A DNA stretch of 64,000 bases from the IMG/VR virus record IMGVR_UViG_3300009709_000001, positions 317,336-381,335 of that record. One strand, given 5' to 3'. This document shows positions 46,924 to 56,954 of the stretch, in pieces. A program made the position numbers and the translations under genes. Origin of the DNA: a virus. Its lineage: Duplodnaviria; Heunggongvirae; Uroviricota; Caudoviricetes. The notes beneath the pieces were generated by a model, which was not told the origin of the DNA, ran no database searches, and was given only the letters and a program-made list of their open reading frames with translations. Numbering within the stretch: position 1 is the stretch's first letter; every line of letters starts with the position of its first letter.

Positions 46924-47592
46924 ATGATCAATATTCATTTTTATAAAACATTTTTAGGTAACAAATACTCGAAATGGTATTTGTCTATTATTGTTGCTGC
47001 ACAATCGAAAAATCGTAAAAAATCCGAAGATTGCTATTACGAGCGTCATCATATTATACCCAAATCTATAAATCCTGAGATTTCGAACTTAAAATTAAAT
47101 CCCTGGAATGGAGTATTACTAACCGCGAAAGAGCATTTCATTTGTCATCTTCTTCTTACAAAAATGGCTATAGGAAAAGATAAGAATAAGATGATTTATG
47201 CATTATGGAATCTACGTAATCAGAAAACTAAATCTCAGGACCAGAGATTTACCTCAAATCTATACAACGTATACAAGAAACAGATGCAAGAAGCATTATC
47301 TGTAGATCGAAAAGGTAAATCTCTGGAAGAACGATACGGGATTACTCGTGCATCGGAGATTAAAGCATCCTACCGCACAAGAATCCCTCGTGGGAAAGTT
47401 TCCAATGAAGAAAAGGGTAAACTTTCTGAAAATATGAAAACTCTTCATCAAACCCGGCCTTGGAAAAGATTTATGCAAACCAACGGTGTTCTTCCAAAAA
47501 ATACCTGCCCGCATTGTAATAAAACAATGGATGTCGGTAATTATGGAAGATATCACGGGGACAAATGTAAATTACGCGAGATTAGCAAATAG
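46924..47592 (+). CDS. HNH homing endonuclease (222 aa)
   Basis: RHHIIPKSINPEISNLKLNPWNGVLLTAKEHFICHLLL; C-terminal CPHC...YHGDKC zinc finger; first ATG is 46924 (track start 46909 is TTG); 3' end overlaps the QueE 3' end by 21 nt. Confidence 0.8.
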   Translation: MINIHFYKTFLGNKYSKWYLSIIVAAQSKNRKKSEDCYYERHHIIPKSINPEISNLKLNPWNGVLLTAKEHFICHLLLTKMAIGKDKNKMIYALWNLRNQKTKSQDQRFTSNLYNVYKKQMQEALSVDRKGKSLEERYGITRASEIKASYRTRIPRGKVSNEEKGKLSENMKTLHQTRPWKRFMQTNGVLPKNTCPHCNKTMDVGNYGRYHGDKCKLREISK

Positions 47593-48453
47593 ATGCATTT
47601 GCATTTGCATTCTGTAACCGTGCTCCATACAATATCTACCCACGTATTCGTGATTTTCTTGTATCTTCTGCATATTTAATAATCCCGGTTCGAAGAAATT
47701 AATAACTTCATCAACAGTTGAGCGCTCATCCATTGTGATATTGCCTTTTTCGTTGTGTAGAATTTTAATCTTCTGTGGAAGGCTGTTATACACATTCATC
47801 GGGCTAAGATATACTTCCTTAGTAGGATTATTTCTTTTCCACTCATGTGCCCATTCCGGAATTTGATTGTATGGGCTATCTGTTTCGGCACTAACGACAA
47901 ACTTCAAGCAATCTGCTCTTTCCAAAATTTGTTTGGTAGGAGAAAGATACTTAGTAGCCACACCATTCTTTTCAGCACATTTCGGGCTGCAAACGAGTGT
48001 AACACCTTCAGGAATAGGAAGATTTACAGTACCATTGCTTTCGATTTGTACTGCTCTGAAGTTAGGAACTTGTCTTTCTAGGAATGCTGTAAGGTTTGAT
48101 TGTAGTGTGGGTTCACCACCTGTAATAACCATAACAATGTTCGGGAAACTATATGCCTTCTTATCTGGATGTGCCCAAATAGGTGCTACACCACCTTTGT
48201 CTTCCCAATATTTATAGATCGTGTCACCTACCTTCTTTTCCAGTTCTTCATAAGTCATCCAATCTCCATCATCGAAGAATGTATCACAGAAAGAACAAGC
48301 TAGGTTACATTTTGTCAATCTAATGAATAGTGCAGGAGAACCGGCGTATGGACCCTCGCCTTGAAGTGTAAAGAACATACTTGTAACAAATAAACTATTC
48401 TCTGGTGCATCTTTGAAAAATTTCTGGCCAATAATTTGGTTAGTTCCGAACAT
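47572..48453 (-). CDS. queE: 7-carboxy-7-deazaguanine synthase QueE-like radical SAM enzyme (293 aa)
   Basis: [10 protein letters not shown] followed by [10 protein letters not shown] (CxxxCxxC). Confidence 0.8.
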   Translation of the reverse strand: [293 protein letters not shown]

Positions 48454-48985
48454 CTATTAATTCCTTCATTTCGTTTAGTGATAGAAATAACTTTTCACAG
48501 CTAAAACCATCTTTCTTATATTTGCTATTTTCTAAACACCAGCTTCTTATTGTTGTGTGATAAACACCGTAGAATTTGGCAGCGTGTTCTAGGGATGGAA
48601 ATTTTCCGTCTAGTGTGGTTACCAACATTTTCCATCCTTTTGCATCATCTCTGTCAATTTTGCCGAGAGAACACTCAACTTCTGGAACAACATATTCTCT
48701 AGAAAGGTAATTTATTGCACTTTGTAGAAGAGAAATATCATCCTTGAATAACCCGAGTGCGGTGTTGCAGTCAGTGCATAGTAGACCTCTGATTTTTCCA
48801 GATACATGATTATGATCAACTGCTAGATCTCTTCCGCAATAGTCGACTTGCTGGCAGATGCAACAGACACCATTTTGATCGGATTTTATTGCTTCATATT
48901 GATCGTAGTTTATTCCAAACTTCAAAAGAAGCCCATTTTTCTTTCTTCTTTTTTTAGATCTTTCCGGTGTATTAATTATTCCCAT
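48440..48985 (-). CDS. Endonuclease VII-type (HNH-like) homing endonuclease candidate (181 aa)
   Basis: CCICQ...LAVDHNHVSGKIRGLLCTDCNTALG; C-terminal HTH-like tail; AT-rich. Confidence 0.75.
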   Translation of the reverse strand: MGIINTPERSKKRRKKNGLLLKFGINYDQYEAIKSDQNGVCCICQQVDYCGRDLAVDHNHVSGKIRGLLCTDCNTALGLFKDDISLLQSAINYLSREYVVPEVECSLGKIDRDDAKGWKMLVTTLDGKFPSLEHAAKFYGVYHTTIRSWCLENSKYKKDGFSCEKLFLSLNEMKELIDVRN

Positions 48986-48991
48986 AAAAAT

Positions 48992-54978: not shown

Positions 54979-55175
54979 TTGTTCCCGGCTCCGTGGCTCT
55001 GTGCGATAAACGCCTTCAACTCAGCTTCATGTGCCCTCATGAATTGCTCAGCGATAAGAAGGGAAATTCCGGTGGTTCCACCGATTACCTTCGTTGCTAT
55101 ATGTGCTTCTTGCGCTTCTTGCAGGGCGGTAAACACCTCCCCTACAGTTAGCGGATATTGAGCTAGATTTCTCAT
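54975..55175 (-). CDS. hypothetical protein (66 aa)
   Basis: ORF track; 4-nt overlaps. Confidence 0.5.
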   Translation of the reverse strand: MRNLAQYPLTVGEVFTALQEAQEAHIATKVIGGTTGISLLIAEQFMRAHEAELKAFIAQSHGAGNK

Positions 55176-55396
55176 TTCTTTCCTTTGTGTCGAACCCGTG
55201 ATTCGCGCCTAATCTTTTTCGGCATAACATAAAAGTCGGGTTTCATACCAGAAATTAGAGAATGAGAATAAATCATCCCGTTCATCATACCATGCATGTA
55301 CTGGGAGGGTTCACTTGCGGAGGACTGTAAACAATCCTCCTGTATGCCCATCATTTCCTCTAATTTTTTCAGGCGCTTTTGCAGCTCGTCATTCAT
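55172..55396 (-). CDS. hypothetical protein (74 aa; start uncertain)
   Basis: ORF 55172..55477 trimmed to MNDELQKRLKKLEE to limit the overlap with the DpdA-like gene; no clear RBS. Confidence 0.4.
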   Translation of the reverse strand: MNDELQKRLKKLEEMMGIQEDCLQSSASEPSQYMHGMMNGMIYSHSLISGMKPDFYVMPKKIRRESRVRHKGKK

Positions 55397-56954
55397 CGAT
55401 CTTAGAATGATCATCTTGACCTTGATCTGCCATTTCTTCACCAGATGGTGTTTCAGCACGATGGCCATCGATATCACCCCACATTACTGTGTTGGTCATT
55501 GTAGTAGTGGTTTTCTTATCGCCAAAACTTACAAAGTCGAGGAATTTCTGATTCTCTGCCAACATATTGTAAGGGTCTTTGTTGGAAGGGTCAAGTAATT
55601 CCTCAACAAAGGAGTTGAAATACAAAATTGAGTTTGGAACAAAGTTACTAATCGGTGTACTGCTCTTTTTATCACCGGGGCGATAATCTTTCCAACTAAT
55701 TTTAGGCTTCAAAATATATTCGATGTCTGCAAGACGATTAATTTCTTGCACAGCCTGAATATGATTGTATACATTATGTGCCATGACAAGAGCATAAGTG
55801 GTTGTATCCCAACTTGTCTTGCCTTCTTTGCCATGCTTGTTCAAATCGCCGGGCCCCATCACACACATATCAGATGCGTATAATCTTTCCATAATCGGTC
55901 CTTGGAACGGCATTGCAATTTTCTTATCTTTCAAATCCTTGCTATCAATGCCCCTGCCCATCGCATAGGTAAGTTGATCGGGTTTGAAATAATTGTAATT
56001 GTAGGAGAGTGCATAACCACCAGCCGCAACAAAAGGTGATGCAGCGTCGAAGCTGATATTGATATTAGGATTATCGTATTTCTTCAACAGACGCTCGATA
56101 CTAGACAAATAACATGCCCAATCTAAACGACCAATACCCAGAAAGTGAATCCAATCTTTACCCTCTAACAGTCCATCTCTGCGCAAGTCAAGAATACGTT
56201 CAAGAACAGTTTTCATGTTCTTCATGTTGATACCTGCAAATGCCCAACCTTCTAATGTTCTATCCTTGGAATAGCCCATAGCTTCAACACTCGATGGAAT
56301 ACTGAAGTGTTTTACTGTTTCATACCAATCACGAGAATTGCTATTATCACTACCCGAAAGAACATTAAGAAACTTAGTTGCTCCCGGAACCCGATTCTTC
56401 ATGAAATAATGCAAATTGTATTCGGTAACATCCAGACAGTCCTGAAACTTAGTAAGTCCAGTTTTTGCACTCAATGGTGGAAGAGCAGCAAATGCCGGCA
56501 CGTCCAATGTCATTGACCAATCAGCAGTATGTTCTAGGTAACGTAGAATTTCTTCACGTAGCTTATCACCTGCGTCTGTCATGACTGTTGACCAATCAAG
56601 CTTAATAACGCCGGTTGCAATCTGGAAGCCGCCAGAGTCGCCAATCAGTACGGTGTCATCTCCACGCTTGTGAATCATCGGTTCACGATCGTCACAACGT
56701 GATAAATTTCTATCAGCATGTCCTGCTGAATACAAACCCCACTTGTAGTGAAAATAACTATCTTCTGATTTTAGGAAATCGAGTCCTTGAATACCATATT
56801 CAAATTTTTCAGGCACACGTTCTTTCGGTACAAAGTTCTCGTCTGCAAGATCTTTACCGAGATGAGTGGTATAAAAACCACTAATGGCGGGAAGGTATTT
56901 TGCCCAACCGCCTTCGATATGTCTTTCGGTAAAATCTACTCTATTTTTTGTCAT
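55389..56954 (-). CDS. dpdA: DpdA-like tRNA-guanine-transglycosylase-family protein (521 aa), putative DNA 7-deazaguanine transglycosylase
   Basis: LIGDSGGFQIATG (TGT DSGGFQ), WSMTLDVPAF, WIHFLGIGRLDW. Confidence 0.7.
   Translation of the reverse strand: MTKNRVDFTERHIEGGWAKYLPAISGFYTTHLGKDLADENFVPKERVPEKFEYGIQGLDFLKSEDSYFHYKWGLYSAGHADRNLSRCDDREPMIHKRGDDTVLIGDSGGFQIATGVIKLDWSTVMTDAGDKLREEILRYLEHTADWSMTLDVPAFAALPPLSAKTGLTKFQDCLDVTEYNLHYFMKNRVPGATKFLNVLSGSDNSNSRDWYETVKHFSIPSSVEAMGYSKDRTLEGWAFAGINMKNMKTVLERILDLRRDGLLEGKDWIHFLGIGRLDWACYLSSIERLLKKYDNPNINISFDAASPFVAAGGYALSYNYNYFKPDQLTYAMGRGIDSKDLKDKKIAMPFQGPIMERLYASDMCVMGPGDLNKHGKEGKTSWDTTTYALVMAHNVYNHIQAVQEINRLADIEYILKPKISWKDYRPGDKKSSTPISNFVPNSILYFNSFVEELLDPSNKDPYNMLAENQKFLDFVSFGDKKTTTTMTNTVMWGDIDGHRAETPSGEEMADQGQDDHSKIDE

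Follow-up and report, generated by a model that had tools for sequence, protein, structure and literature searches.

A putative DpdL-type 7-deazaguanine DNA-modification module beside the DNA polymerase gene of an uncultured jumbo phage

The stretch of DNA considered here, 64,000 nucleotides of virus record IMGVR_UViG_3300009709_000001 (positions 317,336 to 381,335; hereafter the window, numbered from its first letter), carries next to its replication genes a set of genes for QueE, DpdL and a transglycosylase-like protein that together point to modification of guanine in phage DNA by the 7-deazaguanine route. The window is part of a phage genome of ~385 kb and belongs to an uncultured jumbo phage whose family-B DNA polymerase (PolB) shares by tblastn 40-43% identity with its counterparts in Sinorhizobium phage Phosso, Agrobacterium phage Atu_ph07 and RaK2-like phages. 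Two proteins of the window recur with 100% identity on a metagenomic contig of 385,394 bp, and the gene calls are the same on a Logan contig of run SRR5829574. Local genes of the Pseudomonas jumbo phage PA5oct (Wroclawvirus) are ~50% identical to those of the window, with values of 52% each for the TGT-like protein, DpdL and PolB. A megablast comparison of the 47-57 kb region with isolated phages gave no match.

Between ~44 and 62 kb of the window the genes are closely packed and, apart from one plus-strand homing endonuclease gene, all lie on the minus strand. The polymerase gene (58200-61151, minus strand, 983 aa) was recognised by tblastn and by a precomputed Pfam DNA_pol_B assignment. It is followed by a conserved 250-aa gene (57373-58125, minus strand), two small open reading frames (ORFs) and the TGT-like gene, which starts 1.25 kb from PolB, in agreement with the ~1.2 kb of an earlier note on this DNA. 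The 250-aa gene is 50% identical to PA5oct gp314 and belongs to PHROG 12062, a family of unknown function; the clamp label it had been given was not confirmed, there being no match in Pfam or among solved structures. The three co-directional genes and signature motifs on which the earlier note had based a 7-deazaguanine DNA-modification module adjoining replication genes are all present at the positions it gave, on the minus strand, and the module itself is supported by the family and fold assignments that follow. A scan of the sequence for promoters and terminators found no enrichment above shuffled sequence.

The first of the three genes (47572-48453, minus strand) encodes a 293-aa protein identified as QueE, the radical-SAM 7-carboxy-7-deazaguanine synthase, from its motifs and from PHROG, NCBIfam and PDB matches. 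The translation contains QGEGPYAG and CNLACSFC within a segment of the form QGEG...FIR...CX3CX2C. PHROG 2076 ('QueE-like radical SAM') is matched at E 5e-54. The protein also matches five NCBIfam QueE models (E 4e-22 to 1.5e-11) and the solved QueE structures 6nhl (E. coli), 4njg and 5tgs, the species represented being E. coli, Burkholderia multivorans and Bacillus subtilis; the alignment to 6nhl covers residues 23-188 (E 5e-15). Comparison with QueE profiles and structures thus supports the identity first proposed from motifs. The length of 293 aa had been read correctly, but its description as unusual was dropped as a meaningful anomaly, since the QueE proteins of phages ACP17 and PA5oct have 269 and 290 aa. 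The protein is 39% identical to ACP17 QueE and has no significant match to that of PA5oct. The ACP17-like subtype is shared by the window and its four closest relatives, whereas most related loci carry, like PA5oct, another subtype; the two occupy the same module position without significant pairwise similarity (47572-48453 in the window, 16427-17299 in the related locus L001). Because most related loci carry the PA5oct subtype, the sub-lineage of the window has swapped its QueE type. The window protein is a divergent phage subtype that would have the same function as QueE.

The second gene (50109-50495, minus strand) encodes a 128-aa T-fold protein previously labelled QueD/PTPS-like, a label that has to be replaced by DpdL. 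The name DpdL was introduced for paralogues of QueD in which the CxxxHGH motif is changed to LxxxHRHxF (Cui, Hutinet et al., NAR 2023, PMC10516641). The HPHRH motif of the window protein is part of exactly this signature (L28-K-H-P-H32-R-H34-I-F36), and residues H16, H32, H34 and L28 are invariant in an alignment with DpdL of phiST, ACP17 and PA5oct. The three histidine ligands of zinc are kept, with leucine at the position of the QueD catalytic cysteine and arginine at that of its glycine. The protein is 50% identical to DpdL of Acidovorax phage ACP17 (ASD50405; tblastn E 3e-33) and 38% identical to that of Cellulophaga phage phiST (gp040, CGPG_00067; tblastn E 9e-13). There was no match to Pfam PTPS (PF01242) at E 0.01 and none in NCBIfam, and hhalign related it weakly to a phage QueD profile (65%, E 6e-5). 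QueD itself was ruled out, the essential cysteine of CxxxHGH being replaced by leucine. DpdL has been found in QueC-less phages that carry QueE together with a DpdA (PMC10516641), and the window presents the same context, with QueE and a DpdA-family gene present and QueC absent. Its activity was predicted in 2023 to be decarboxylation of 7-carboxy-7-deazaguanine (CDG) to 7-deazaguanine (PMC10516641). In phiST, which has FolE, QueD, QueE and DpdL and no QueC, guanine is fully replaced by dDG (2'-deoxy-7-deazaguanine), with CDG undetected (PMC10516641).

The third gene (55389-56954, minus strand) encodes a 521-aa protein that is described here as a divergent DpdA2-like candidate DNA-guanine transglycosylase with a TGT fold, on the basis of a structure model, hhalign comparisons and invariant residues. 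Its translation contains the motifs GDSGGFQ, TLDVP, HFLGIG and SFDAAS. An AlphaFold2 model built with 40 homologues (pLDDT 82, pTM 0.83) takes the form of a TGT-type (beta/alpha)8 barrel for which Foldseek ranks TGT first, and on structural comparison bacterial DpdA was the top match, with TGT and ArcTGT close. In an alignment of 72 diverse family members the only invariant residues are D106, S107, G109, P153, H270 and D303, while conservation reaches at least 90% at D151, Q111, L272 and G273; no cluster of cysteines or histidines is invariant. Alignment of the family with E. coli TGT by hhalign (89%, E 2e-6) brought the catalytic motifs together (window/E. coli: GDSGGFQ/TDSGGFQ, MTLDVP/MIFDEC, HFLGIG/YLMGVG and SFDAASP/MFDCVMP), and the conserved aspartates fall on the general acid/base, base-recognising and nucleophile aspartates of TGT. 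For reference, we take these in Z. mobilis TGT numbering to be the catalytic D102 and D280 and the substrate aspartate D156. The TGT fold and the catalytic aspartates, on which the transglycosylase proposal had been made to depend, were therefore both found. The protein has no match in Pfam, PHROG or NCBIfam, nor did its sequence profile find one in the PDB. The experimentally active DpdA2 of Vibrio phage VH7D is likewise without a Pfam match, so that this lack is normal for the branch. The family is large, with >3,800 members at 90% clustering among the 8,000 best candidates scored and 900 clusters at 50% identity.

The relationship to DpdA2 was traced through intermediates. By hhalign the family aligns over the catalytic core with VH7D DpdA2 (96.9%, E 1.7e-10) and also with the ACP17-type 424-aa protein (95%). 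The ACP17 homologue is in turn 33-36% identical over 255 residues to the FolE-adjacent gene of Vibrio phages nt-1, VH7D and KVP40, which is DpdA2 (PMC6884629). The bases that the VH7D enzyme inserts into DNA are preQ1, preQ0 and, in trace amounts, CDG (PMC10516641). There was no direct tblastn match between the 521-aa protein and the Vibrio DpdA2 proteins, the link running via the ACP17-type intermediates, and the protein is best regarded as a probable distant sister clade of DpdA2, not as a clear member. Of two other assignments, DpdA3, to which hhalign gave marginal values (40-69% to the single phiST sequence CGPG_00065, 4.5% between profiles) and which lacks the DSGG motif, was set aside as less likely, and DpdA4, whose DUF6610 (PF20314) was matched by 0/72 members, was rejected.

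Attempts to place these genes in a wider context made use of IMG/VR, in which a scan with the DpdL alignment found at least 563 confirmed relatives, and module genes were mapped in 80 loci. The linkage counts given below refer to the 52 mapped loci of at least 12 kb each, among the matches listed. These loci share ancestry and the counts are not independent events, yet gene order varies between them. The order that recurs in the PA5oct-like lineage is PolB, 250-aa gene, long TGT, (293-aa gene), DpdL, glycosyltransferase, FolE, QueD, QueE, 212-aa gene and RNase H, and the module order is kept in dozens of related viral contigs.

A key observation from this survey concerns a 396-aa glycosyltransferase (GT) homologue of GT4 (GT-B) type, encoded at 51593-52783 (minus strand; called start 52783, alternative start 52807 possible) and homologous to PA5oct gp167 and ACP17 ASD50404. 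Its assignment is weak but consistent: the match to Pfam Glycos_transf_1 (E 1.9e-4, 21.4 bits) lies under the gathering cut-off of 26.4, some homologues of 75-79% identity carry a precomputed PF00534, and the profile gives weak PDB matches to the GT4 enzymes GlgM (E 0.006), WbaZ, PglA and WbnH. R206, K211 and E299 are invariant in the C-terminal domain and presumably correspond to donor-binding residues of GT4 enzymes. The gene is present in 33 of the 34 loci with a long DpdA2-like TGT, in none of the five with a phiST-type DpdA3 and in two of the 13 in which neither TGT type was detected. The same pattern is seen among isolated phages: GT homologues occur in BUCT-ZZ01, Phosso, eleven PA5oct-like phages, BUDD, X1 and ACP17, all with DpdL, and BCSR5 also has a GT. 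The pairing is common to several unrelated phage groups. No GT was found in Rhizobium phage RHph_I1_18, which has DpdA3, or beside DpdA2 in the Vibrio DpdA2 phages that have QueC and QueF. Literature on DpdL, or on deazaguanine together with glycosyltransferases, yielded no paper describing a GT linkage.

The other genes interleaved with the three enzymes, all of which are present as first described, fall into conserved and lineage-specific ones. Like the GT4-like gene, that for a 293-aa protein (50702-51583, minus strand) is conserved in related modules. It is by tblastn 34% identical to ACP17 ASD50402, which lies inside the ACP17 module, is found in 17 of the 34 loci with a long TGT and has 2070 metagenomic homologues. 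It has no match in Pfam, PHROG or NCBIfam; its AlphaFold2 model has a pLDDT of 67, with a conserved and confidently modelled N-terminal alpha/beta domain (residues 1-170), and comparison gave no fold assignment. In contrast, the 278-aa DHH/DHHA1 phosphoesterase (54142-54978, minus strand; NrnA-like), which matches PHROG 4771 (E 2e-87) and weakly Pfam DHH and DHHA1 and NrnA in the PDB, is found in the module of the four closest loci only (L004-L007). An insertion confined to this sub-lineage, it is probably no core component and was rejected as one. An endonuclease VII gene, the plus-strand homing endonuclease gene (46909-47592) and most of the small ORFs are likewise lineage-specific insertions.

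Precursor genes were sought throughout the 64 kb. No FolE, QueD, QueC or QueF was detected by a Pfam scan of ORFs of at least ~150 aa, and tblastn and phmmer searches of the window with query sequences for FolE (five), QueD (five), QueC (one) and QueF (one) gave no match below E 0.2. The absence of QueC and FolE noted earlier is thus borne out and extends to QueD and QueF. For QueC and QueF this is what the DpdL route predicts. For FolE and QueD it is probably an effect of the window, and their absence from 64 kb tells little, since the genome has ~385 kb. Of 34 related loci, 24 have FolE and 13 have QueD within 10 kb of DpdL, but the four closest loci and PA5oct have neither locally. PA5oct has its FolE (gp231) and two QueD paralogues (gp230, gp226) ~55 kb from the module (these and a MazG-like gene: NC_071039.1, 168449-171971 and 183672-184079; locus L090), and in Phosso QueD is >200 kb from DpdL. 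By synteny with PA5oct the FolE and QueD genes of the window phage would lie ~45 kb past the right end of the window; alternatively, the host may supply the two enzymes. The MazG-like pyrophosphatase gene of PA5oct is also far from its module, and counting DpdL that phage has three QueD-family genes. An IMG/VR scan with PA5oct QueD alone yielded 3 loci.

The region is best explained as a DpdL-type module for 7-deazaguanine modification of phage DNA, a reading to which we would give a probability of about 0.7. From the assignments above we infer the following route, including DNA and not RNA as its target. FolE would convert GTP to dihydroneopterin triphosphate and QueD would form 6-carboxy-tetrahydropterin, both enzymes being provided from elsewhere in the genome or by the host. 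QueE would then produce CDG, which DpdL is predicted to decarboxylate to 7-deazaguanine, so that no QueC would be required. Once the phage DNA is replicated, the 521-aa DpdA2-like enzyme would exchange its guanine for the deazaguanine base by the TGT mechanism; D303 would be the nucleophile and D106 the general acid/base, while D151 and the HFLGIG loop would recognise the base. The GT4-like and 293-aa proteins would be conserved accessories that may be needed for insertion or may tailor the base, and the modified DNA would be expected to resist G-dependent restriction. Most probably the product is dDG or a derivative tailored further. Since DpdL is present and QueC absent, as in phiST, the precedent is dDG and not the carboxy-deazaguanine base suggested in the earlier note. 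The DNA of PA5oct has been reported to contain a modified G, with the base structure not identified and no transglycosylase reported, and to resist G-dependent enzymes (PMC12191111). This report on PA5oct independently supports DNA as the target of the module.

Several observations weigh against this explanation. The best NCBIfam score of QueE, 78.7 bits, does not reach the equivalog cut-off of 200. The decarboxylase activity of DpdL is a prediction for all members of the family, and co-expression in E. coli of dpdL of ACP17 or phiST with the dpdA of the same phage yielded no dDG, the authors suggesting after the failed ACP17 reconstitution that further enzymes may be required (PMC10516641). 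The 521-aa protein fails the Pfam TGT model (PF01702), which is matched by 3 of the 72 family members with a best E of 0.0045, and its proposed link to DpdA2 comes from profile and structure comparison. FolE and QueD were not found for this phage in the 64-kb window searched, and there is no known base chemistry for any phage of this architecture. Finally, the phiST type, the sole one with proven dDG, has no GT4-like gene, and therefore the product here may differ.

This last point leads to the alternative that holds up best, in which the final base is a further-tailored, for example glycosylated, 7-deazaguanine produced by the GT4-like protein and possibly the 293-aa protein, acting on the free base or on DNA. 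The case for the further-tailored and possibly undescribed base envisaged in the earlier note is strengthened by the conservation of the two genes in many lineages, although as an account of this phage it is less likely than not. In its favour are the linkage of the GT to the long DpdA2-like enzyme in all but one of its loci, its place beside DpdL in at least six phage groups (PA5oct-like, ACP17, BUCT-ZZ01, BUDD/X1, Phosso and BCSR5), its absence from all DpdA3 loci and the three invariant residues of its C-terminal domain, together with the failure of ACP17 DpdL and DpdA to suffice on their own (PMC10516641) and the restriction of PA5oct by nucleases described as sensors of hypermodified DNA (PMC12191111). 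Against it, a hydroxyl that could serve as acceptor is not obvious in 7-deazaguanine, the protein is only weakly assigned as a GT, with Pfam under cut-off and a best PDB E of 0.006, and it could use another substrate or be a structural partner only. A speculative extension, put forward with the same reserve, is that phages combining the long DpdA2-like, GT4-like and DpdL genes (with or without the 293-aa gene), including PA5oct, ACP17 and the window phage, make an undescribed 7-deazaguanine derivative built on the products of QueE and DpdL and tailored by the GT. If this were true they would represent a distinct and widespread G-hypermodification system and not another dDG producer.

A pathway that ends at CDG, with dCDG (2'-deoxy-7-carboxy-7-deazaguanine) inserted in DNA as the earlier note proposed, seems improbable. 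QueC is indeed missing from the window and the activity of DpdL only predicted, while VH7D DpdA2 does insert CDG, at very low efficiency, and dCDG is present in the DNA of STSV-2 (PMC10516641). However, DpdL is conserved in every related module among the loci listed, and in phiST, with the same QueC-less set and DpdL, it was dDG that replaced G while CDG went undetected (PMC10516641). Entry of the deazaguanine into DNA as a nucleotide before or during replication, with the TGT-like and GT-like proteins acting on nucleotides, has similarly poor prospects. The module does lie between PolB and RNase H, a MazG-like pyrophosphatase occurs in PA5oct and MazG in the phiST cluster, and the full replacement of G in phiST might be easier by way of the nucleotide pool. 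On the other hand, the characterised DpdA/TGT enzymes all use the free base on polynucleotides, Pfam scans of the window found no phosphoribosyltransferase, kinase or dGTPase, and the best structural match is the DNA-acting DpdA. That the TGT-like enzyme modifies host or phage tRNA is hardly credible. In favour of it, tRNA is the ancestral substrate of the superfamily, and TGT and ArcTGT match the model closely in structure. Against it, the best structural match is bacterial DpdA, the profile link runs to DpdA2, the 64-kb window yielded no tRNA genes, PA5oct DNA itself resists G-dependent enzymes and the gene is tightly linked to replication genes.

Homing endonucleases are a feature of the window at large. 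Genes of HNH, NUMOD3 or homing-endonuclease-like type number at least nine and are dispersed over it (927-1637, 12687-13223, 14903-15472, 15697-16305, 24129-24881, 28365-29192, 36881-37558, 46909-47592 on the plus strand and 61389-62000), and that at 46909-47592 is immediately flanked by QueE and the next conserved gene. The PolB gene of the window is intact at 983 aa, whereas that of PA5oct is interrupted by an endonuclease gene; in many related contigs the PolB matches come in two pieces, apparently likewise split by an endonuclease. Within the module a 123-aa ORF (52780-53151, minus strand) resembles the N-terminal part of gp23, the major head protein of T4 type (PHROG 138, E 1e-10; precomputed Pfam Gp23). 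Outside it, a 167-aa macro-domain protein (29123-29626, minus strand) is similar to the macrodomain of the antitoxin DarG (PADLOC DarG E 1e-17; Pfam Macro E 6e-6) and might serve the phage in counter-defence by taking ADP-ribose off DNA; in RHph_I1_18 a macro-domain ('Appr-1-p processing') gene comes directly after DpdL (locus L094, 8414-9238). With a GC content of 0.61, against ~0.41 elsewhere in the window, a GC-rich island at ~25600-28100 has the look of a recent acquisition. It encodes a 392-aa protein with a weak TPR match (25642-26820) and an AAA+/STAND-like ATPase of 365 aa (26869-27966), both of them covered by the long antisense ORFs that are usual at high GC. Also present are an RtcB RNA ligase (35619-36884, minus strand; Pfam E 6e-129), a calcineurin-like metallophosphoesterase (39320-40312, minus strand), a DUF2201 metallopeptidase/VWA-like protein (18257-19456, minus strand) near an AAA ATPase (21484-22710, minus strand), a D-Ala-D-Ala carboxypeptidase (8546-9346) and an SPFH/Band-7 protein (31365-32612).

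Modifications of the 7-deazaguanine kind shield phages against restriction enzymes, and against Cas9 too in one reported case; they are also the targets of new defence nucleases. The architecture seen in the window is common in environmental jumbo phages, as judged from the at least 563 DpdL relatives and the 900 clusters at 50% of the TGT-like family, and it is shared by the therapeutic-candidate phage PA5oct. The linked GT4-like and 293-aa genes are candidates for the extra enzymes invoked after the failed reconstitution with DpdL and DpdA, and their recognition makes both the base made by these phages and the function of DpdL testable.

In kind the system is a known one, phage 7-deazaguanine modification with DpdL, while the combination of a long DpdA2-like enzyme with the GT4-like and 293-aa proteins is uncharacterised and its linkage undescribed. 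It differs most simply from the bacterial Dpd system (DpdA, DpdB, DpdC; 7ui4), as no homologue of DpdB (the ParB-like ATPase) or DpdC was seen in the window, the precursor would not be preQ0 and identity to DpdA is only 17%. With DpdA2 of Vibrio phages nt-1 and VH7D the 521-aa enzyme has in common a long TGT fold (458 aa in VH7D) and the DSGG, D, HxLGxG and SxD motifs, but the Vibrio enzymes sit with QueC and QueF and insert preQ0 or preQ1, whereas the window has DpdL and a GT and neither QueC nor QueF. The dDG pathway of phiST (FolE, QueD, QueE, DpdL and DpdA3) resembles that of the window in having QueE and DpdL without QueC, CDG as expected precursor, the LxxxHRHxF signature of DpdL (38% identity) and a position beside the replicative polymerase. 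It differs in its transglycosylase, a 259-aa DpdA3 in place of the 521-aa DpdA2-like enzyme, and the module of the window adds the GT4-like and 293-aa genes, has no MazG or ATPase gene in its cluster and lacks local FolE and QueD. ACP17 has FolE and QueD inside its module and PA5oct has the other subtype of QueE, that of the window being of the ACP17 subtype; compared with both, the window adds the DHH gene, small ORFs, endonuclease VII and the homing endonuclease. These two phages nevertheless share with it the long TGT-like, GT4-like, DpdL and QueE genes, and in ACP17 a homologue of the 293-aa protein as well.

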